Source: Desulfonatronovibrionaceae bacterium
GTDB lineage: Bacteria; Desulfobacterota; Desulfovibrionia; Desulfovibrionales; Desulfonatronovibrionaceae
NCBI GenBank assembly: GCA_046539845.1
Contig: JBKHGE010000008.1
Coordinates: 1-64,000 of the forward strand
Reading direction: 5' to 3'
Length of the DNA: 64,000 nucleotides
Shown here: positions 6,479 through 23,722 of the stretch, one piece after another
Layout of the letters: each line of letters begins with the position of its first letter
Position numbering within the stretch: the stretch's first letter is position 1
The notes under the pieces: model-generated
What the model was told of the DNA's origin: nothing
Databases searched by the model: none
What the model saw: the letters and a program-made list of their open reading frames with translations, nothing else
Position numbers and translations under genes: made by a program

Positions 6479-7292
6479 ACTGTTCGATTTGAGCATTGTC
6501 TTTATGTATTTTGCCGGTTCAGTCTTGTATCTGAGCGGATTCATGGCCGGCAGGAAAAAGGTCAAGAAAACTGCCGTGACCCTGGCTGTGATCGGCTTTG
6601 TCCTCCATTCCTTTGATCTGGCTGTAAAACTGTATCTCCCCTCTGCCCAGGCACTCACCCAGAATCAGTTCTATTTCAGTCTGTTGGCCTGGGTTTTTAT
6701 CCTGGTCTATTTTGCCCTGTGGTGGAGGATAAGACTGGAGTTCCTTGCTTTGACTGCGGCTCCGCTGGCCTTGGTCCTTTTCACTTCCTCCCTGTCGGTA
6801 AGCCAGGTCAAGCTGAATGTCCCGGATACCCTGAGCTGGCTGTGGTTCTGTCTGCATATCGGGTCCCTTTTTCTCAGCATGGGCCTTTTGGCTATGGCCT
6901 GCGGCGCGGGCATCGCCTATTTGTTTCTGGAGCGCAAGATCAAGACCAAATCCCCTCTTGGTGCTTTTTCCCGGGAGATGCCCTCTTTGAATGCCTTTGA
7001 CCTGGTAAACAGACTGGCGGTCCTGTGGGGATTCCCCCTTTTCACCCTGGGACTTTTGGCTGGATATACCTGGGCGGCCATAGCTTGGGACCGGGTCTTT
7101 TCCTGGGACCCCAAAGAAGTGGTTACCATCGGAGTCTGGTTTGTGTTCGGCTATCTTTTTCATCAGCGAATAGCCCTGGGCTGGCAGGGCAAGAAACCGG
7201 CTAAACTGGCCATTTTTTTGTTTGCAGTAAGTGTTGTTTCCCTTTTGGGCATTAATTATCTTTTACCCTCACACCATACTTTCAGGCCGTAA
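6465..7292 (+). CDS. CcsA/HemX-family cytochrome c assembly membrane protein
   Basis: WWD domain (WAAIAWDRVFSWDPKE), conserved His, about 8 TM segments. Confidence 0.9.
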   Translation: MPWFKLFDLSIVFMYFAGSVLYLSGFMAGRKKVKKTAVTLAVIGFVLHSFDLAVKLYLPSAQALTQNQFYFSLLAWVFILVYFALWWRIRLEFLALTAAPLALVLFTSSLSVSQVKLNVPDTLSWLWFCLHIGSLFLSMGLLAMACGAGIAYLFLERKIKTKSPLGAFSREMPSLNAFDLVNRLAVLWGFPLFTLGLLAGYTWAAIAWDRVFSWDPKEVVTIGVWFVFGYLFHQRIALGWQGKKPAKLAIFLFAVSVVSLLGINYLLPSHHTFRP

Positions 7293-8609
7293 ATGGACTA
7301 TAAGATATATCTGCTGGGCATTAATCATAATTGCGCGGATGTGGATATCCGGGAGAAATTCGCCCTTCCGGATATGGATCCGAACTTTCTTTTGCGTTCC
7401 CTTCCGGCAGTTCGCGAGGCCCTGGTTTTATCCACCTGCAACCGGGTGGAGCTGCTATGCGTTTCCGACAGAAACAAAGCCTTGCAAGTGTCCGAAATCC
7501 TGGAGACTTGGGCCGGACAGTGCGGGGAAGAAGCCGGCGTGCTCAAGGAGCATGCCTATGCCTTGGAGAACGGCCAGGCGGTGGAGCACCTTTTTTCCGT
7601 GGCCTCCAGCCTGGATTCCATGGTCCTGGGGGAACCGCAGATCCTGGGGCAGCTCAAGGACGCCTACCGCAAGGCGGTCTATCACCGTGCTCCCGGTCCG
7701 GTAATAAACCGCATGCTACACAAGTCTTTTTCCGTGGCCAAAAAGGTACGTACGGAAACCGCCGTGGCCTCGAGTGCTGTGTCCATAAGCTATGCTGCGG
7801 TAGAGCTGGCCAGAAAGATATTCGGGGAACTGGAGGGAAAAAAGGCCATGCTCGTGGGAGCAGGGGAGATGGCCGAGCTGGCTGCGGCGCATCTCCTGAA
7901 CTGCGGGATAGCGGAAATTCTGGTGGCCAACCGGACACTGCGGCGGGGACGGGAACTGGCGGATAGATTTGGCGGCCGCGCTGTGGGCTTCGAGGATATT
8001 CTGGACTGGCTGGGAGAGGTGGATATTGTGATAAGTTCCACCGGGGCCAGTTCTACGGTCATAAGCGCGGCCCAGGTGCGAAAGTTGCTTAAGAGGCGCA
8101 AAAATCGTCCCATGTTCTTCATTGATATAGCCGTACCCCGGGACATAGATCCGGACGTGAATATGCTGGACAATGTCTACTTGTACGATATTGACGACTT
8201 AAGGGAAGTGGTGGAGGAAAATCTGGCCGGGAGGCAGGAAGAGGCCCGCAAGGCCAGGGAGATAGTCAAAGGGGAGAGGGACAAATTCACCGCCTGGCTG
8301 AACGAGCTGGATCTCTCTCCGACCATTCAGGCCCTTTTAAACAGCGGAGAAGAGATCGCCCAACGCGAAGTGAACCGTACCCTGCGCTCTATCGGGGATT
8401 GTGACGAACATACTGTTCGGGCCTTGGAGACCATGGCTTCTTCCCTGGTGCGCAAGCTGTATAGGGAGCCTATAGTCTTTTTGAAACGTCGCGCCCAGGA
8501 AGAGGGTTCGGCCAGGGAGTTCATCCATTTGGCCCGGAGGATATTCAATCTGGACAAGGAGGATATCCCGCAGGGGGCGCACAAAAACCGCAAAAAAGAC
8601 AAGGAGTAA
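7293..8609 (+). CDS. hemA: Glutamyl-tRNA reductase
   Basis: LSTCNRVE, SLDSMVLGEPQILGQ, GAGEMA, DIAVPRDID. Confidence 0.98.
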   Translation: MDYKIYLLGINHNCADVDIREKFALPDMDPNFLLRSLPAVREALVLSTCNRVELLCVSDRNKALQVSEILETWAGQCGEEAGVLKEHAYALENGQAVEHLFSVASSLDSMVLGEPQILGQLKDAYRKAVYHRAPGPVINRMLHKSFSVAKKVRTETAVASSAVSISYAAVELARKIFGELEGKKAMLVGAGEMAELAAAHLLNCGIAEILVANRTLRRGRELADRFGGRAVGFEDILDWLGEVDIVISSTGASSTVISAAQVRKLLKRRKNRPMFFIDIAVPRDIDPDVNMLDNVYLYDIDDLREVVEENLAGRQEEARKAREIVKGERDKFTAWLNELDLSPTIQALLNSGEEIAQREVNRTLRSIGDCDEHTVRALETMASSLVRKLYREPIVFLKRRAQEEGSAREFIHLARRIFNLDKEDIPQGAHKNRKKDKE

Positions 8610-12323: not shown

Positions 12324-13847
12324 CTATTCACAGATGTTGTCGATCTCGAATTCCTCACCGGTGTCTGCGTGCAGCACGTGCACGGCACAGCCCAGTCACG
12401 GGTCAAAGGAGCGGATCACCCGCCCCACGTTAACCGGTGATTTGGGATCCGGTACCGGAGTCCCGACGAGTGCCTGCTCTATGGGACCGAGCTGCCCCAT
12501 GTCATCGCGCGGGCAGGCGTTCCAGATAGTGGCGGCCACGATCTGGTACTTGTTGATCACGTAGTCCTTGACATCGATATAATGCAGCAGCGAGCCGCGC
12601 GGGGCCTCGGTAAGACCCAGTCCTTCGCCCTTTTCCGGGACCTCGGTCTGGGCATAGGTTTCAGCGCCCGGCTTTACCTCCTCCAGCCACTTGGAAACCG
12701 CTTTGGCTACTAGGAAGGCCTCCTCGGCCCGGGCCACGTGACGCCCGAGAATGGAGAATGCCTTGTCTCCAAGATCGCGCATGCGTTTGAAGCCAGCTTT
12801 CTGTGCGGCCGGGCTGAGTTCGGGGTTGGTGACCCACATCCGGGCCAGAGGACCGGCCTCATGCGGCTTGCCGTTGTAGCGCGGGGCCTTAATAAAGCTG
12901 TAGGCACCGTCTTTTTCCGGCTGGGGATGGGTCTCTCCCTCGCTGGGATGCTTGTTGCTGTCCGAATCCTTGAACCAGGAGTATTTAACAAATTCCCGGA
13001 TTTTGTCCGTATCCAGGGGGTAGTCCTTGCCTTCGGTGAAGACCCCTGGCTTGAGCAGGAACTCGTTCTCTGCATCGTCCAGAGGGAACACCCCGTAGGA
13101 CACACAGTTCTTGTATCCGCCCCCGGTCTCCAGGAGATCGCCGTACGCTCCAGCCAGGGTATAGATAAGCGGCAGGTATTCGTCCTCAATAAAGGACATG
13201 ACCTTTTTGAAGCGCCACAGGTAAGCCACGATCTGATCCGCGGACGGGATCTGCGTGGTTCCGCCCACAACCATACCGGCCACGTGCGGCATCTTCCCGC
13301 CGAGAAGGGCGACCATCTCGTGGCAGATGCGCCGGATTTCCAGGGCCTTTAAGTACTGATCTACCCCGATCTGATTGGTCTTTTTGTCCAGGCGGACGTC
13401 GTTGTTCTCATATCTGGGGATAAATGGGGCCATTTCCGGGCCGTTGACATAATCCAGGGCGGCCAGATGATAGAAGTGCAGGATATGCGACTGCAGGTAG
13501 TTGGCCCCCAGGATCAGGTTGCGGGCTATACGGCCGTTGGTGGTCAGCTTGACATCAAAGGCATCATCCAGGGCCCGGACCGATGCGGTAGCGTGCGCTG
13601 TCGGGCATACCCCGCATATACGCTGGGTTATCTGGGAGGCGTCCCGCGGGTCGCGATCCTTGAGGATTTGCTCAAATCCGCGGTACATCCCGCCGTGGAT
13701 GTGGGCGTCAGTGATCACCCCATCCTTGACTTCCACATCTACTTTTAGGTGCCCCTCGATCCTGGTTACCGGATCAACAGCCACCTTTATTTTTTTTCCG
13801 GCTGCGGCAGCCGCCGCCGGAGCCTGTTTAGCTCTGCATCCACTCAT
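12324..13847 (-). CDS. hysA: [NiFeSe] hydrogenase large subunit; selenocysteine at UGA 12398-12396
   Basis: L1 motif RICGVC; reading through TGA gives L2 motif SFDP-U-LGCAVH then VLHADTGEEFEIDNICE, stop TAG at 12326-12324. Confidence 0.97.
12361..12389 (-). promoter_or_regulatory. Bacterial SECIS element of hysA
   Basis: GUGCA-CGUGC-UGCAC stem-loop with extended lower stem; loop starts 17 nt after the UGA and has G at its second position. Confidence 0.8.
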
Positions 13848-16869: not shown

Positions 16870-17253
16870 ATGCGCAAAATGATGCAGAGTAAGGGTTTTA
16901 CCCTTATCGAACTGATGATCGTCGTGGCTATTATCGGGATTTTGGCGGCCATCGCCATCCCCAATTACATGAATTATCAATGCAAAGCCAAGCAGAGCGA
17001 GGCCAAGACCAATCTGGGGTCCATCCGGACTTCCCAGGAGGCATTCCGGGCTGAGCATGACAGTTTTACTACTGACCTGGGTGATATAGGTTTTACCGTT
17101 GAAGGGGATAAAGTTTATTCCTACGAGGTTGAGAGCGCGAACTCCACGAATTTCACTGCAGTGGCCAGGACGGGTGATCTGAACGGCGAGACTGACAGAT
17201 GGGAGATGTATGCCAACGGAACCCAGGAAAATTTAACTAATGCCTGTGAGTAA
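16870..17253 (+). CDS. pilA: Type IVa major pilin
   Basis: Prepilin site [32 protein letters not shown]; strong downstream terminator; 118-aa mature protein. Confidence 0.95.
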
Positions 17254-17287
17254 TCTGTTGAGCTGATAAAGACTCAATAGGTGTATA

Positions 17288-17327
17288 AGGGCCCCCTTAA
17301 ATGAGATATTAAGGGGGCCCTGTTTTT
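17288..17327 (+). terminator. Intrinsic terminator after pilA
   Basis: AGGGCCCCCTTAA-ATGAGATA-TTAAGGGGGCCCT then GTTTTT. Confidence 0.85.
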
Positions 17328-17338
17328 GTAGGAGAGCT

Positions 17339-18067
17339 ATGGCCGGGAAGCGTTTTTCCCTGATTTTTGTCCTTTTGGCTGCAGTGTGCGCAGCTGTTTT
17401 GCTCCAGGCCGGTTACGTGGATAAATATCGGCGCGTGGATAACGGTGGCGGTTGACCGGCTCCCTGCGAAAAGTTCCCCGGGGCCGGGGAGCTGTCCTAT
17501 ATCCCGGGGAGCGCGGAGGTGCTGCGGATATTTGTGCCCGCGGACAACGAGTTTATGGCCGACCTATTGTGGATGCAGTCCTGTTATTATTTTGGGGAGC
17601 ATTTTTTAACCGACCGCAAGTATGACCTCTTGGATGAATATCTGGAATTGATCATTGAGCTGGCCCCGAAGTGGAAGCGGCCCTATAGTTTTGCGGCCAT
17701 AATCTTTCCTCTGGAGGCCGGAGACGTTGACAAGGGGTTGGAGTTCCTGGATAAGGCCATAGAGCGCCACCCGGATGTCTGGCGCTTCCCGTTCTACAAG
17801 GGTGTCTATCTCATGCAGTATAAAGGGGATATGGAGCAGGCGGGCACTATTTTGCACAAGGCCGCTTCCCTGCCCGGCGCCCCCGAATATCTCTCCCGGC
17901 TGAGCGCCACCCTGGCCACAAAAGCGGGCCGGAGGCGTCTGGCCCGGCGTTTTCTGCGGGACGCCCTGGAGCGGGCCGGAGATCCAAAGCAGCGCAAAGC
18001 CATACAGATTAAACTCAAGGAACTTATGCAGGATGATGAACACGGCACTGCAGTGGAAGGACGTTAG
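17339..18067 (+). CDS. PilG/XapA-like TPR-containing pilus accessory protein with in-frame UGA at 17453-17455 (candidate selenoprotein)
   Basis: AGGAG RBS, ATG 17339, signal/anchor MAGKRFSLIFVLLAAVCAAVLLQAG, then GGG-[UGA]-PAPC, in frame with the 17519-18067 ORF (ADLLW, TPR-like KAIERHPDVWRFPFYKG); lies between pilA and the ABC genes. Confidence 0.75.
17472..17493 (+). promoter_or_regulatory. Candidate SECIS hairpin
   Basis: AGUUCCCCG-GGGC-CGGGGAGCU 9-bp stem; G-leading loop begins 25 nt after the UGA. Confidence 0.5.
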
Positions 18068-18959
18068 TTATTCCGTTCGCACCGGGTTCTGGCTGCGCAA
18101 AAAACGGATATTAAACAGGGTTTCCCTCACCCTGCCCCAAGGTGCGGCAGTGGGGCTGGTCGGGCCTAACGGGGCGGGCAAGACCACCACCATCAAGATC
18201 GGGGCTGGGCTGGTCGGGCCGGATTGCGGGCAGGTATTGGCAGCGGGCGGGAGGATCGCGGATATCTCCGTGCGCCGGAAAACAGGCCTTTTGACTGAGC
18301 TGCAGTATTTCTATCCCCATGTAACGGTTAAGGAATGGCTGCGTTTCCTAGTTTCCCTAACTGGCTTAAGTCCCGCGAATATAACGGACAAATTCTCTTT
18401 TTTTATCCGGGAGCTGCAACTCGAGCAGCTTTTGAACCGGCAGATGAAGACCCTGTCCAAAGGCCAGGCCCAGCGGGTGGGGCTGGTCCAGGCCATGGTC
18501 CACGGCCCAGACATCCTCCTTTTGGATGAGCCCATGAGCGGTCTGGATCCGTACTGGAGGTCCAAGATATTGCAGCTTTTGCGGGACTTCCGGGACCAGG
18601 GGGGGAGCATACTTTTCAGCTCGCATATAATCGCGGATGTGGAGGATTTGTGCGAGCGGATCGTACTTATGCAGGAGGGCAGGGTGCAGTGGGAGGGAGA
18701 TATACGAGATGTCCGCAGGCAGATAAGAGGGTACCGGGTTATCTGTACCTCGGCCTCGGCTGAAGACCTGGGAGATTGGCAAGAAAAAGCTGCAATTGAG
18801 ACCCTGCCGGACAAAGGGGTTTTGATTTATCTGGATCCGGAGAAAAAGGACGAGTTTTTGAATTTTGCCCTGTCCGAAGGGATTACTGTAGATGCGGTCA
18901 TCCCCCAGCTCTTGAAGCTTGAAGAAGTCCTTTTCGGGTTGAGGAAAAATGCGGATTAA
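18033..18959 (+). CDS. ABC transporter ATPase (PilH-like)
   Basis: GPNGAGKT, LSKGQ, LLLDEPMSGLD, SSH; pilA-linked. Confidence 0.92.
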   Translation: MMNTALQWKDVSYSVRTGFWLRKKRILNRVSLTLPQGAAVGLVGPNGAGKTTTIKIGAGLVGPDCGQVLAAGGRIADISVRRKTGLLTELQYFYPHVTVKEWLRFLVSLTGLSPANITDKFSFFIRELQLEQLLNRQMKTLSKGQAQRVGLVQAMVHGPDILLLDEPMSGLDPYWRSKILQLLRDFRDQGGSILFSSHIIADVEDLCERIVLMQEGRVQWEGDIRDVRRQIRGYRVICTSASAEDLGDWQEKAAIETLPDKGVLIYLDPEKKDEFLNFALSEGITVDAVIPQLLKLEEVLFGLRKNAD

Positions 18960-18980
18960 GTGCAAGCAAAAGGGCATAAC

Positions 18981-19754
18981 ATGATGCAGCGGCAGCTTTC
19001 GGCTTTTACAACCCTGGTCTTGAGGGAATCTTTACGGGACAGAGCAGCCCACATGCTCCTGGTTTCCGGGGTGGTGATGCTGTTTTTGTCCATAGTCCTG
19101 GGCAATATGGCCGTGGGCGAAGGGAAACGGGTCATCCAGAATATGGGTTTCTGGGTCTTGGGCCTGTGGGGCCTTTTCAGCCTTATGTATTTTGGGTCCA
19201 GGAATCTGAATATAGATCTGGAGAAAAAGACTATCTATCTGATCCTTTCCCGGCCAATAAAAAGACCTGTGTATTTGCTGGGGAAATACCTGGGCCTGAT
19301 AGCGGTTTTGGCCTGCTTGTTTGCGGTTTTGGCCCTGGTCTGGTTCGGGCTGCTTTTTTTGTGGCGGGTGCAGATAAGTGGGCTGCATTTCCTGGCTGCG
19401 TTGTTTATCTTCGGGGAATGGGTCCTTCTTGCCGCATTCAGCCTTTTTTTCTCCACCTTCACCACCCCGTTTACGCACAATTTTTTCTTGGCCGGGGTGT
19501 ATGTCTTGGGGCACTTGAGCAGTGACCTTCTTCGTTATGCCCGGATTACGGAAGTGGACTGGATGGGTACGCTTTTAACCGCAGTATATTATGTGTTCCC
19601 CAATCTGGAGGCCCTTAATTTCCGGGCATACGCCCTGTACAATGAACCGGTCGGTTTAGGCATGCCGTTGACCGCAACCGCGGTTTTGTTCGCCTGGGCG
19701 GGGGCAGCCTTTTTGGGGGCCAACGCAGTCTTTATGGGCAAGAAGATAAAGTGA
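18981..19754 (+). CDS. ABC-2 type permease (PilI-like)
   Basis: About 6 TM; KTIYLILSRPIKR..YLLGKYLG; YYVFPNLE. Confidence 0.88.
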   Translation: MMQRQLSAFTTLVLRESLRDRAAHMLLVSGVVMLFLSIVLGNMAVGEGKRVIQNMGFWVLGLWGLFSLMYFGSRNLNIDLEKKTIYLILSRPIKRPVYLLGKYLGLIAVLACLFAVLALVWFGLLFLWRVQISGLHFLAALFIFGEWVLLAAFSLFFSTFTTPFTHNFFLAGVYVLGHLSSDLLRYARITEVDWMGTLLTAVYYVFPNLEALNFRAYALYNEPVGLGMPLTATAVLFAWAGAAFLGANAVFMGKKIK

Positions 19755-19797: not shown

Positions 19798-21957
19798 GTG
19801 ACAAGAAATATTTCGGTTCCAGCGAGCGGAGCTTCGGCCAGGAAGTGCACAGTCTTCTGGCTGATAGCCATCCTGATTTTTGTTGTTTATGCCAATACCA
19901 TAGATGACGAATTCCATTTTGACGATATTCCGAATATAGTCCGGGCCAAAAATGTCCACATAAAGTATCCCACCTTTAAGGAGCTTAAAAAGAGCACGAT
20001 CAAACAGAAAACAGAGAGGCTGTACCGGCCTGTAGCCAGGGTGAGCCTGGCTTTGAACTGGTATTTCGGGGGCAAAGATGTCACCGGCTATCATCTGGTA
20101 AATATAGCCGTGCACATTTTGGCCTGTTTTTTTCTGTACTTATCTATTCTGCTTATCCTTCAGGCCCCGCGCGCTTCGGATATTTCTCCAGAGTACCGGC
20201 AATTTATAGCCCTCTTGGCTGCAGTTCTCTGGGCGACAAATCCCATACAGACCCAGGCAGTTACCTATATAATCCAGAGAATGGCTTCTATGGCCGGTCT
20301 GTTTTATATTATGGGGATTTTCTTTTATCTGCGGGCAAGGCTGGGTACCAGCCGCATAAAAGAGGCTTTTCTATACTCAGGTGTTTTGTTTTGCTTTTTA
20401 TTCGCTGTGGGCAGCAAGGAAAACGCCATTGTCTTTCCCCTGGGCCTATTGCTCATTGAAGTTTGCTTTTTCCAGGATATGATCCGGATAAGGAACAAAA
20501 GATTTGCCCTGTACTCGTTGGCTTCGCTTGCGGGGCTGCTTTTGGCCGGTACGGCCCTGTTTTGGATAATGCGGGACAATCCCCTGCAGTATTTCGGGGA
20601 TCTGGCCGGGCAATACGAGGATAGGCCGTTTACCCTGGGCCAGAGGCTTTTGACCGAACCCAGGGTGGTCCTGTTCTATCTGTCCCAGATATTTTATCCC
20701 ATCGCCGATCGGCTGTCCCTGGTTCATGATTTTCCTCTCTCCACGTCGCTCTTTTCCCCTTGGACCACGTTTGTCTCCATATTGACGGTTTTCGGGGCAA
20801 TAATCTTCTGTCTGCTCACAATTACCAAGTTTCGCTTCCTCTCCTTTGCTGTCTTGTTCTTTTTTATAAATCATGCCGTGGAAGCAAGCATATTCCCTCT
20901 GGAGCTCGTTTTTGAACACCGCAACTATCTGCCGTCCATGTTTTTGTTTCTTCCGGTTGCCCTAGCCCTGGCCCGGGGGATAAATTATTATAAGACGCGA
21001 GGAAAGAAGCCCACGCAGTGGCTTCTGGTTAGCTTTGCGGCTTTGCTTATCTTTTTGTTCTCCACGGGGACATATGTGCGCAATATGGCCTGGGCTAACG
21101 ACAAAATCCTGTGGGAAGACGCGATTGAGAAAGCCCCGAACAGCGCAAGGCCGCATAACAACCTTGCTTTGCTGGTAAAGAAATATGACCCGAAGAGGGC
21201 TGAGAGTTTGTTTAAAATGGTAGAAAAAGGAACTCCAGTTAGAAAAGATAAAAATAAAATATTAGCATATACCAATCTGGCTTATATGTATTTGCAGGAA
21301 GGCAAATATGAACAATCTGAAGAATATTATAATAAGCTTCTTAAATACGATCCGGACTCAGAAAAAGGATGGATGGGGCTGATAAGCTGTTATCTGCAAG
21401 TTGGTGATTTGGGCAAGGCCTTGAGGCGTGCGGACATGGTCTTGGAAGACAATCCGGACCATCAAAGGGTGTTGGGACTTAAGAGTTTTATCCTCCTCAG
21501 GATGAACCGCCCGGACCAAGCCTATCCGGTGGTAAAGAAATATCTAGGTATGGTTCCGGATGATAAAAAGGCCCTTTTGAATATGGTGTGTGTTCTGCAT
21601 CGGCTTGAAAAATACAACCGGGCGAGGTCTTATCTTGACCGTTTGCTCCGGCTCTATCCTGGAGATCTGCCCGCCCGGCTTTTTGAGTTGGAAAGTCATC
21701 TGGCCGCAGGTGAAGAGGCAGAGGCCCGGACTTGTGCTGACCGGCTGCTCAAACAGTTTCCCCTAGCCAGGATAGGCGGATATTTTGCCGATATGGATAA
21801 AAAAGGCGGCATGGTCTGGCTGGTGGACAAAGGACTGCTCCTGCCCTTTCTGCAGCAGAGATTGAAAGGAAGAGGGGATGTTCTGTTAAGCGGCGGTAGC
21901 GCAAAAGGCCGGGGTTTTGATGCGGATATGGTGGAGGGAGCCTCCCCGGCATTTTAA
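19798..21957 (+). CDS. TMTC-like GT-C glycosyltransferase with C-terminal TPR repeats
   Basis: FHFDD first-loop acidic motif, YRP, YHLVNIAVH, PIQTQAVTYIIQR, SKENA, EHRNYLPS; polytopic N-half, TPRs in C-half. Confidence 0.82.
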   Translation: MTRNISVPASGASARKCTVFWLIAILIFVVYANTIDDEFHFDDIPNIVRAKNVHIKYPTFKELKKSTIKQKTERLYRPVARVSLALNWYFGGKDVTGYHLVNIAVHILACFFLYLSILLILQAPRASDISPEYRQFIALLAAVLWATNPIQTQAVTYIIQRMASMAGLFYIMGIFFYLRARLGTSRIKEAFLYSGVLFCFLFAVGSKENAIVFPLGLLLIEVCFFQDMIRIRNKRFALYSLASLAGLLLAGTALFWIMRDNPLQYFGDLAGQYEDRPFTLGQRLLTEPRVVLFYLSQIFYPIADRLSLVHDFPLSTSLFSPWTTFVSILTVFGAIIFCLLTITKFRFLSFAVLFFFINHAVEASIFPLELVFEHRNYLPSMFLFLPVALALARGINYYKTRGKKPTQWLLVSFAALLIFLFSTGTYVRNMAWANDKILWEDAIEKAPNSARPHNNLALLVKKYDPKRAESLFKMVEKGTPVRKDKNKILAYTNLAYMYLQEGKYEQSEEYYNKLLKYDPDSEKGWMGLISCYLQVGDLGKALRRADMVLEDNPDHQRVLGLKSFILLRMNRPDQAYPVVKKYLGMVPDDKKALLNMVCVLHRLEKYNRARSYLDRLLRLYPGDLPARLFELESHLAAGEEAEARTCADRLLKQFPLARIGGYFADMDKKGGMVWLVDKGLLLPFLQQRLKGRGDVLLSGGSAKGRGFDADMVEGASPAF

Positions 21958-21979
21958 TTTTACTGATCAGGACTGACTT

Positions 21980-22933
21980 ATGCACCTTGCAGTGATAATC
22001 CCCTGCTTAAATGAAGAGGCAACCATTAAAAGCGTGCTCGCCGCCATTCCGGAGGAGATACCCGGGGTGGATAAAATGGACGTTATTGTTGTTGACGACG
22101 GGTCCACGGACTCTACTGTTCAGATAGCTGAAGAGCATGGCGCCTCAGTTGTCAGCCACGGCAAGAACCTGGGGGTGGGGGCCGCTTTTAATACCGGGAT
22201 TTCCGAAGCCATAAACAGGGGCTGCGATATTGTGGTCAATATGGACGGGGACGGCCAGTTCAACCCGGAAGACATTCCCTCCCTGGTGGAACCCATTCTG
22301 AGAAAGCAAGCGGATTTTGTGACCGCTTCCCGGTTTTGCGATTCCTCGCTTACCCCGGAGATGCCGCTTATTAAAAAGTACGGGAACAGGGCCATGTCCC
22401 GGCTGATAAGTATGCTGACCCGCCAGAGGTTTTATGATGTCTCCTGCGGTTTTAGGGCCTATTCCCGGGAAGCTCTGCTGCGGCTGAATCTCATGGGCCA
22501 GTTCACCTATACCCAGGAGACTTTTCTGGACCTGGCCTTTAAGGACCTGGTGATAATGGAGGTGCCCCTGGAAGTGAAAGGCGAGCGCGAATTCGGCTCT
22601 TCCCGGGTGGCCGGGAGCATCAGCAGGTATGCCTTTAATTCCGCAAAGATAATATTTCGGACCTTTAGGGACTATAAGCCCTTGCAATTTTTCGGCATTA
22701 TCGCCGCGGCTTTTCTGGCCGCTTCCTTTGTCCTGGGTGTATTCTTTCTGGCCCACTACTTTTATACCGGCCATTTTAGCGGCCACCTCTGGGCCGGGTT
22801 CACCTCCGGGTTCCTTTTTTCCATGGGCATAGTATTTCTGGCAGTCGGGCTTCTGGCGGACATGTTTGTCCGCATAAGGAAAAATCAGGAAAAACTTTTA
22901 TACTACCAGAAAAAGAAACAAAACAGCAAATAG
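21980..22933 (+). CDS. GT2 polyprenol-phosphate glycosyltransferase (DPM1/GtrB-like) with two C-terminal TM helices
   Basis: IPCLNEE, VDDGSTD, MDGDGQ, DVSCGFRAY. Confidence 0.9.
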   Translation: MHLAVIIPCLNEEATIKSVLAAIPEEIPGVDKMDVIVVDDGSTDSTVQIAEEHGASVVSHGKNLGVGAAFNTGISEAINRGCDIVVNMDGDGQFNPEDIPSLVEPILRKQADFVTASRFCDSSLTPEMPLIKKYGNRAMSRLISMLTRQRFYDVSCGFRAYSREALLRLNLMGQFTYTQETFLDLAFKDLVIMEVPLEVKGEREFGSSRVAGSISRYAFNSAKIIFRTFRDYKPLQFFGIIAAAFLAASFVLGVFFLAHYFYTGHFSGHLWAGFTSGFLFSMGIVFLAVGLLADMFVRIRKNQEKLLYYQKKKQNSK

Positions 22934-22951
22934 GATAGACAACGAAAAAGG

Positions 22952-23722
22952 ATGCCTGAGTTCAACGATGTTCCGGAGAAGATGTTTTTTATTCTTTCCA
23001 CCGGCCGAACCGGCACCCATTTCTTTGAGAAGTATATAAATTCTACCTGTGAGCGGCACATATGTCTGCATGAGCCCAAGCCCTCCAGAAGATTTAAGAT
23101 TCTATCCAATTTATATATTCAGGGTAAAATTTCCGATCAGTTTGTATTCTACAGGTATCTGCAAGCCAGAAAGAGATATTTTAAAGGAAATAAAGGTTGC
23201 AGCTTTGTAGAGTCGAACAATTTTATGTTTGGCTGCATACCGGCGATCAGCAAATATTTAAATAACGTAAATGTGATTCATATAGTCAGGCATCCGGTTT
23301 CTTATATTATCTCGCATTTGAATCACGGCTTTTGGAGGGGTAGAAAGAAGGTAATCGCCAAGTATATGCCATACTGGCTGGAAGACATTGGGAGAAAAGA
23401 TGATCCGGTGCGTATCCTGGCGAGAAGATGGGGCTATGTTAATGAGCGTATAAACAGTTACAACCCCTTACTAAGGTATATGTGTATAAGGTTTGAGGAC
23501 TTGTTTGATAGGGATGAACAAGGGGCCTTATCGGCGATCAATAGCGTAAGACGATTTTTGGGATGTCCTGAATTAAGCGATTCACTAAATTACAAATTTA
23601 TAAAAAAACCTACCAATGTATCCCGGGGCAAACAGGGTTTAACTGATTTGCATCCCAGAGACATTGATTATGTTAATACCCAATTGGGCCCTTTGATGAA
23701 AAAATTCGGTTACTGGAATTGA
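22952..23722 (+). CDS. Sulfotransferase family protein
   Basis: 5'-PSB-like STGRTGT, HEP, 3'-PB-like HIVRHP..S, RFEDL. Confidence 0.75.
   Translation: MPEFNDVPEKMFFILSTGRTGTHFFEKYINSTCERHICLHEPKPSRRFKILSNLYIQGKISDQFVFYRYLQARKRYFKGNKGCSFVESNNFMFGCIPAISKYLNNVNVIHIVRHPVSYIISHLNHGFWRGRKKVIAKYMPYWLEDIGRKDDPVRILARRWGYVNERINSYNPLLRYMCIRFEDLFDRDEQGALSAINSVRRFLGCPELSDSLNYKFIKKPTNVSRGKQGLTDLHPRDIDYVNTQLGPLMKKFGYWN

Follow-up and report, generated by a model that had tools for sequence, protein, structure and literature searches.

A candidate selenoprotein with an in-frame UGA on a conserved cysteine position in a pilin-linked ABC cassette of a Desulfonatronovibrionaceae bacterium

An in-frame UGA downstream of a type IV pilin gene

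A 64,000-nucleotide stretch of a Desulfonatronovibrionaceae genome (positions 1 to 64,000 of contig JBKHGE010000008.1, assembly GCA_046539845.1), referred to below as the window, contains directly downstream of a type IV pilin gene a frame interrupted by a single UGA, and the question raised by this locus is whether the codon ends translation or is decoded as selenocysteine (Sec). The frame opens with ATG 17339 and extends over 242 codons of the forward strand up to TAG 18065-18067, its sole in-frame stop being TGA 17453-17455, codon 39. A sequence-only reading of the window had proposed Sec at this codon in a membrane-anchored pilus accessory protein, and our sequence and translation agreed exactly with its description of the frame, the start, the TGA position and the cysteine located four residues further on. 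As for the proposal itself, the cysteine of homologs, a hairpin resembling a selenocysteine insertion sequence (SECIS), the Sec machinery of the genome and the read data were all found on its side. Decoding of UGA 39 as Sec, in what would be a new selenoprotein family within a cassette of pilin, accessory protein, ATP-binding cassette (ABC) ATPase and permease genes, is here considered likely. The features of the gene are as follows.

17339-18067, forward strand: read-through gene, translated with TGA as U; N-terminal membrane helix, flexible linker with U39-x3-C43, helical domain resembling tetratricopeptide repeats (TPR)
17330-17334, forward strand: Shine-Dalgarno-like AGGAG, read from the sequence, 4 nt 5' of ATG 17339
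17354-17410, forward strand: predicted membrane anchor, codons 6-24 (FSLIFVLLAAVCAAVLLQA), the most hydrophobic 19-residue segment
17453-17455, forward strand: TGA, codon 39, proposed Sec codon; on the first cysteine of the CxWC of homologs and present in contigs of four sequencing runs
17465-17467, forward strand: TGC, Cys43, partner cysteine; on the second cysteine of CxWC after a one-residue insertion
17519-17521, forward strand: GTG, start of gene call P0002 (182 aa) and possible internal start, with GGGGAG 7 nt upstream
17534-17536, forward strand: GTG (V66), at the site of the Met with which the called 'MPAD/MPAN' starts begin in five related clusters

Both the list of open reading frames (ORFs) obtained with translation table 11 and the public gene call P0002 begin the candidate at GTG 17519.

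Read support

An assembly error does not account for the TGA. Four runs, all belonging to one study of microbial mat and hypersaline lake metagenomes, have Logan contigs that carry the same TGA at 17453-17455, in answer to the check for a sequencing error proposed with the sequence-only reading. Two of them, X1 (depth 28) and X2 (depth 32), possibly represent the source sample; X3 (depth 6) comes from another sample and X4 (depth 2.7) spans positions 17265-17481 only. Over 851 bases, X3 alone differed, by one synonymous G>A at 17926. The runs represent one study and one near-clonal population and hold no information on the age of the TGA.

The UGA codon falls on a conserved cysteine

A word-indexed protein search returned four matches only, all called short (see below), and an exhaustive search of 1.84 billion representatives returned 1896 matches at E <= 0.001, including 9 at E <= 1e-30. 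Lengths and helices were judged on the best 150 of these 1896 matches, most of which had 210-310 aa and an N-terminal hydrophobic helix; homologs also carry a helix at the anchor position of codons 6-24. In the closest full-length homologs, a C-x-W-C motif, mostly CPWC(E/D), was found about 25 residues before the conserved 'PAD..F.ADLLW' that opens the TPR body. Carriers of this motif include P0007, P0010-13, P0016, P0020, P0021, P0027, P0029, P0033, P0067 and others.

Several comparisons placed the UGA on this motif. A 20-row alignment (A2) put codon 39 on its first cysteine and C43 on its second, with one residue inserted between them, and contained the motif in 13 of 14 full-length rows, P0009 being the row without it. 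BLASTP against the full-length P0007 (44% identity over residues 1-231) likewise set the TGA on the first cysteine. A hidden Markov model (HMM) of the N-terminus, built from 34 Cys forms only, scored the joined N-terminus of the candidate at 31.5 bits (E = 3e-7 for 61,300 targets), here too with the TGA on the Cys column. Scored singly, the two stop-to-stop segments flanking the TGA ranked first and third among the 61,300 six-frame segments of the genome, each with a weak E-value (0.2 and 0.94).

At the DNA level, 25 of the 27 unique subfamily loci encoded CxxC at this place, the other two (L052 and L053) having no cysteine there. Scanning the contigs of GTDB species representatives with alignment A3 yielded 5 loci, all with Cys codons at the motif. 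A sample of 401 genomes from the order of G403, one of the genomes with these 5 loci, gave a match in 70 genomes and TGA at the motif in none; the best 25 rows were without internal stop except G737 (2 TAA), and G717 was a frameshifted copy of the non-Cys type. The check proposed beforehand, whether homologs hold Cys at the UGA position, was thus answered by alignment A2 and by the subfamily loci alike, and in these sequences the C-x-W-C motif is strongly, not universally, conserved. The profile search gave 7 proteins, none with a name, and an atlas search with a homolog gave unnamed TPR clusters only.

It is worth mentioning that L052 (genome G459) and L053 (genome G800) have lost both cysteines and kept the helix, the linker and the ABC neighbor, and could serve as natural controls for the motif.

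A SECIS-like hairpin follows the UGA

The 9-bp stem that had been described from the sequence alone, with a G-leading loop 25 nt downstream of the UGA, was found as stated.

17472-17493, forward strand: SECIS-like hairpin; 5' arm 17472-17480, loop GGGC 17481-17484, 3' arm 17485-17493

It consists of 9 contiguous pairs, has a folding energy of -16.4 kcal/mol when taken alone, and is placed so that 25 nt separate the UGA from its loop. The consensus for bacterial SECIS (bSECIS) elements given in the Fig. 2 legend of a 2026 review (PMC13188914) comprises a loop of 3-9 nt, a stem of 4-16 bp and G in the first two loop positions, together with a spacing of 16-37 nt from the UGA and a minimum free energy of -7.5 kcal/mol or lower. 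The hairpin 17472-17493 lies within all the published bSECIS limits quoted in that legend.

Such a structure would seldom follow a TGA by chance. With the rule of a G in the first two loop positions and a loop start 14-39 nt downstream of the TGA, a hairpin at least equally stable followed 17 of 4000 (0.4%) random out-of-frame TGAs in long ORFs of the same genome. After the codon of the first cysteine in 23 unique Cys-form loci, the best hairpin reached -8.4 kcal/mol and five loci had none at all, none being comparable to that of the candidate. A codon-usage screen of the whole genome retained 100 in-frame TGAs flanked on either side by coding-like sequence, among which the candidate hairpin ranked second; the one ranked first sits after a true stop and is terminator-like. 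The genome's own SelD, HdrA-like, NiFeSe hydrogenase and CxxU genes (see below) have small G-containing apical loops that start 20-31 nt after the UGA, and the GGGC loop of the candidate, with its start at 28 in this comparison, falls within their range. Moreover, the hairpin is encoded by F-P-G-A-G-E, and the corresponding stretch in Cys forms is usually acidic and variable, a difference to be expected if RNA structure had shaped these codons.

The hairpin also bears on a quite different explanation, according to which the codon of the first cysteine recently mutated from TGC or TGT to TGA in this population. In that case the hairpin would be a chance product of the GC-rich F-P-G-A-G-E codons, and the locus would be a pseudogene or, in a variant, would give only a soluble TPR protein of 177-182 residues, starting from GTG 17519 or 17534. 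Although a single base change would be enough and the reads, coming from one near-clonal population, are silent on its age, this explanation requires that a hairpin of the 0.4% class, absent from 23 Cys forms, stands by coincidence at the right distance. No second lesion was found across the 242-codon frame, and the soluble product would be devoid of the membrane helix kept by nearly all listed homologs. A recent nonsense mutation is regarded as unlikely.

As a separate observation, the minimum-energy fold of the region includes an outer stem (17457-17466 with 17503-17512) that encloses the hairpin and pairs with GGGGAG, the possible ribosome-binding site for GTG 17519.

Sec decoding in the genome

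All the genes of the Sec pathway whose presence had been suggested as a check were found: selA, selB and selD scored above curated cut-offs, selD itself having one TGA, and ARAGORN identified one tRNA-SeC among 47 tRNAs. The Sec-encoding hydrogenase which the sequence-only reading had pointed out in the window is also real.

12324-13847, reverse strand: [NiFeSe] hydrogenase large subunit with Sec; TGA 12396-12398 in the motif 'SFDP-U-LGC'; read-through product matching Pfam NiFeSe_Hases with E = 2e-131

Judged by this hydrogenase gene, the organism decodes UGA as Sec. Other genes of Sec type in the TGA screen were those for SelD ('AAG-U-ASKISPG') and for an HdrA-like flavoprotein ('NDCAM-U-IISPK').

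UGA 39 could in principle also be read, at a low level, by a near-cognate Trp or Cys tRNA, resulting in a full-length protein free of selenium. The stop is followed by C, and UGA-C is a leaky context in E. coli. However, a full Sec system is present together with a hairpin of the SelB-binding type at the right distance, and nothing in the data calls for such read-through, which is considered very improbable.

According to the mechanism proposed here, SelB carrying Sec-tRNA(Sec) would bind the hairpin 17472-17493 while the ribosome stands on the UGA, giving a 242-residue protein with an N-terminal membrane helix, a juxtamembrane flexible linker holding U39-P-A-P-C43, and a TPR-like domain. The Sec residue would have taken the place of the first cysteine of C-x-W-C in an unnamed family, and thiol motifs are the usual origin of new selenoproteins. 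U39 and C43 would form a redox-active (selenenylsulfide) or a metal-binding pair, and the protein would act as the accessory component of a pilin / accessory / ABC ATPase / ABC-2 permease cassette ordered as pilAGHI of M. xanthus, an operon on which the formation of pili depends.

The same screen drew attention to other loci of the genome (G000). Locus L034 (contig C43, 11352-12206, forward strand) encodes a 284-residue signal-peptide protein with an in-frame TGA in 'RACPT-U-GGKTIGG' (CxxU); a hairpin GGCCC-GGA-GGGCC has its loop start 31 nt after the TGA, and no Pfam family was matched. It may be a second unannotated selenoprotein of this genome. In-frame TGAs located after a ManC-like gene (C12) and after an exonuclease III-like C-terminus (C42) were discarded as ordinary stops. 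Outside the TGA screen, two matches to the SelB model on contig C4 (49922-50788 and 65982-66848, both on the reverse strand) had identical scores and identical 398-codon open frames, duplicated EF-Tu genes being the most probable identity.

Short gene calls in the nearest relatives

The five nearest clusters, P0003 (with 7 further members), P0004, P0005, P0006 and P0008 (with 2 further members), comprise 14 sequences at 48-73% identity. All 14 were called at 121-176 aa, without helix and motif, and begin at or just after 'MPAD/MPAN'. Truncation at contig ends does not account for the short calls, as several of the sequences are located on contigs of 8-130 kb. For a maximum-likelihood tree based on the TPR body, 28 rows were picked from the top hits: 10 short-called ones, counting the window, 12 with CxxC and 6 without the motif. 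The short-called sequences formed one clade (94/87) with the window inside it, sister to the P0003 cluster (88/79); the next branches were P0004 with P0005 (88/67), then P0008 (94/91) and then P0006.

The simplest reading of this pattern would be one ancestral event, a TGA at the first cysteine shared by the whole clade, which makes gene callers stop short; a single shared in-frame TGA, as proposed, would explain all 14 short calls. The window has kept helix, motif and linker in frame, and the event would be visible there as this TGA. If the TGA is clade-wide, the first 65 codons have escaped disruption while the TPR domain diverged by about 0.8 changes per site, which would imply that they are translated through the UGA. 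A recent nonsense mutation in the window would, by contrast, leave the short calls of its 14 closest relatives, among which it is nested, unexplained. The fact that all 14 are called short also means that public annotation of this clade is probably wrong, the proteins being truncated.

The same pattern can be accommodated by a conserved true stop. In this split-gene explanation, a 38-residue membrane peptide ending at the UGA and a separate soluble TPR protein, starting at the Met or GTG of 'MPAD', would both be functional without any Sec, and the short calls would be true proteins. The 26-codon segment separating the TGA from that start nevertheless still resembles the Cys forms (C-E, Y-I-P, L-R-I-F), which is unexpected in an untranslated spacer; despite its weak score when taken alone (E = 0.2), this segment is the top match to the N-terminal HMM among 61,300. 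Furthermore, GGAGG lies 14 nt before GTG 17534, a poor spacing, and neither the hairpin nor the exact fall of the stop on the first cysteine finds an explanation. A split gene is regarded as improbable.

No close homolog was found in 3 genomes of the same genus or in 23 others of the same family, distant ones only being present (G027, G033, G084), and the nearest full-length forms belong to Desulfobacterales-type metagenome-assembled genomes. The cassette is thus patchy in this lineage and may have been acquired laterally.

Points weighing against selenocysteine

A number of observations weigh against Sec decoding of this codon. Regarding the relatives, their DNA was found neither by the genome-contig scan with a protein query nor by the metagenome-contig scans (A1; P0156), so that the evidence on them consists of protein gene calls and the tree. 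The protein search returned no separately called N-terminal fragments (<133 aa) at E up to 10, and no Sec form occurred among the 25 high-scoring subfamily members in the 401 genomes of the other order. Regarding the motif, its spacing in the candidate is U-x3-C with the conserved Trp lost, versus C-x-W-C, and P0009, L052 and L053 are without both cysteines, which indicates that it is dispensable in some lineages. That the motif is already altered, and that some relatives do without it, also speaks for a recent nonsense mutation. Since Cys codons TGC and TGT become TGA by one change, such a mutation would land at the very same place.

The RNA and the alternative starts raise further points. 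The fold of the whole 63-nt segment is modest (z = -1.89), 12 of 200 shuffled sequences folding as well, and a search of 17300-17650 against Rfam, which is without a suitable model for such elements, gave only a chance lncRNA match (E = 6.9). The Shine-Dalgarno-like GGGGAG placed 7 nt before GTG 17519 makes a shorter product from an internal start conceivable, in line with the soluble variant of the nonsense explanation. Finally, five related clusters have Met immediately ahead of 'PAD', where the window has GTG and where the Cys forms seen never had Met, as a split gene would have it. This could reflect a real internal start, or one inherited substitution favored by gene callers.

Fold, topology and possible function

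An AlphaFold2 model computed from the 20-row alignment had a mean predicted local distance difference test score (pLDDT) of 87 and consisted of a helix (residues 2-31), a low-confidence linker (32-58) holding U39 and C43, and a set of helices (59-236).

17513-18046, forward strand: TPR-like all-helical domain, residues 59-236, pLDDT mostly above 90

Around U39 and C43 the linker had a pLDDT below 50, and the model gives no structural clue on the motif. Among the Pfam TPR models, the best matches were TPR_19 (19.9 bits) and TPR_6 (18.3 bits), both below the gathering cut-offs, so that the scores do not assign the protein to a TPR family; no NCBIfam family was matched, and Foldseek against the PDB returned generic TPR proteins only.

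The sequence-only reading had placed the motif in the periplasm with some reserve. In 35 N-termini, the net charge averaged about +2.8 before the helix (amino terminus counted) and about +0.8 in the 15 residues after it, a bias that weakly suggests an N-in / C-out orientation, in which both motif and TPR domain would be periplasmic.

Translation of the pilin gave exactly two cysteines, C29 and C117 of the mature protein, as previously noted from the sequence. A redox role of the candidate toward them is possible, but no observation calls for it; an action on these cysteines, and likewise a gating of the downstream genes on selenium, both put forward in the sequence-only reading, are speculative. 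A search of the genome, 98.9% complete, found neither DsbA nor DsbB families but did find a VKOR homolog. With the latter at hand, the idea of a genome without any periplasmic disulfide system was dropped. The VKOR-family homolog is located on contig C4 of G000 (7110-7442, reverse strand), inside a 375-codon open frame.

More specifically, U39 and C43 might be the active site of a membrane-tethered pilus selenoenzyme, acting for instance on a C29-C117 disulfide of the pilin during its handling by the PilH/PilI-like ABC system, a suggestion that we consider doubtful. If it were true, pilus assembly in this sulfate reducer of hypersaline mats would depend on selenium, and failed Sec insertion would leave only an unanchored form made from the downstream internal start. 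Sec in place of the first Cys of CxxC is a pattern described, in part of PMC1794560, for selenoproteins derived from thiol oxidoreductases, and on account of this pattern a chemically active site would be favored over a structural one.

Relation to known selenoproteins

The absence of such a selenoprotein family from current knowledge, asserted in the sequence-only reading, agreed with the literature. A full-text search gave no report on a pilus-linked or TPR selenoprotein, and in the main text of the 2026 review (PMC13188914, supplements aside) the terms pilus, pilin, TPR and tetratricopeptide never occur.

The nearest parallels are bacterial selenoproteins derived from CxxC (UxxC or CxxU; thioredoxin-like, DsbA-like, HesB-like and similar families), as presented in the relevant part of PMC1794560. 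Like the candidate, they have Sec for one of two cysteines, their Cys forms are widespread whereas few Sec forms exist, all within a small clade, and the host is an anaerobic Sec-decoding member of the former Deltaproteobacteria with the SECIS inside the coding region just past the UGA. The candidate differs from them in that it has no thioredoxin fold and that its motif is located in the flexible stretch joining a membrane helix to a TPR domain; the spacing is U-x3-C, and no redox function is known for its family.

If confirmed, the candidate would represent a selenoprotein family without a thioredoxin fold and would place selenium in a type IV pilus cassette, from which it is unreported. It also points to the C-x-W-C located beside the membrane helix of a widespread unnamed accessory protein of a pilin-linked ABC system. 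New bacterial families in which Sec has replaced Cys turn up regularly, and such a replacement is usually taken to indicate a chemically active, not a structural, cysteine; it therefore designates a concrete residue to mutate in this accessory protein.

Gene neighborhood and comparison with pilGHI

The genes surrounding the candidate are the following.

16870-17253, forward strand: type IV major pilin (Pfam N_methyl, Pilin_GH and Pilin_PilA), directly upstream of the candidate
17288-17327, forward strand: terminator-like hairpin and T-tract (hairpin 17288-17321, 13 pairs, 8 of them G-C), between the pilin gene and ATG 17339
18033-18959, forward strand: ABC transporter ATPase in PilH-like position (Pfam ABC_tran, E = 7e-28), its start overlapping the end of the candidate
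18960-19754, forward strand: ABC-2 permease in PilI-like position (Pfam ABC2_membrane_2)
19798-23722, forward strand: genes for a 719-aa TPR protein, a family 2 glycosyltransferase (GT2) and a sulfotransferase-like protein, after the ABC genes

The linkage of these genes is not confined to the window, Cys-form relatives having kept the order. When its four proteins were compared by tblastn with the fetched loci, the accessory gene was directly followed by that of the ABC ATPase in 31 loci, and a pilin gene was located upstream in 24 of these 31, within the 1.5-3 kb of flank available.

The protein had been called PilG/XapA-like. As far as PilG is concerned, what stands of this name is position: the gene order of the window matches pilA-pilG-pilH-pilI of the M. 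xanthus operon, as given in a passage of PMC3546991, and pilGHI is described as essential for the passage of pilin across the inner membrane in a passage of PMC3724824 citing Wu et al. 1998. M. xanthus PilG (MXAN_5782) shares with the candidate the succession of pilin, small accessory protein, ABC ATPase and permease, a likeness by position; PilG is not reported as a selenoprotein, and NCBIfam gave the candidate no family.

The PilF/PilW/Tgl assembly factors resemble the candidate in their all-helical TPR fold, PilF of P. aeruginosa (2ho1) being ranked 35th by Foldseek. They differ in being lipoproteins that act on the secretin; the structural match is that of a generic TPR protein (template modelling score, TM, about 0.4) and the NCBIfam models for PilW and Tgl were unmatched.

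Geobacter XapA offers a lead: its gene, part of the xap polysaccharide cluster, comes first after pilA, and in the window also, the gene after the pilin gene is followed by ABC transporter genes, to which a glycosyltransferase and a sulfotransferase are added.

Two minor observations concern this neighborhood. Owing to the terminator-like element, the accessory and ABC genes may depend for their expression on transcriptional read-through from the pilin promoter. The glycosyltransferase and sulfotransferase-like genes suggest a surface polysaccharide or glycosylation module tied to the pilin cassette.

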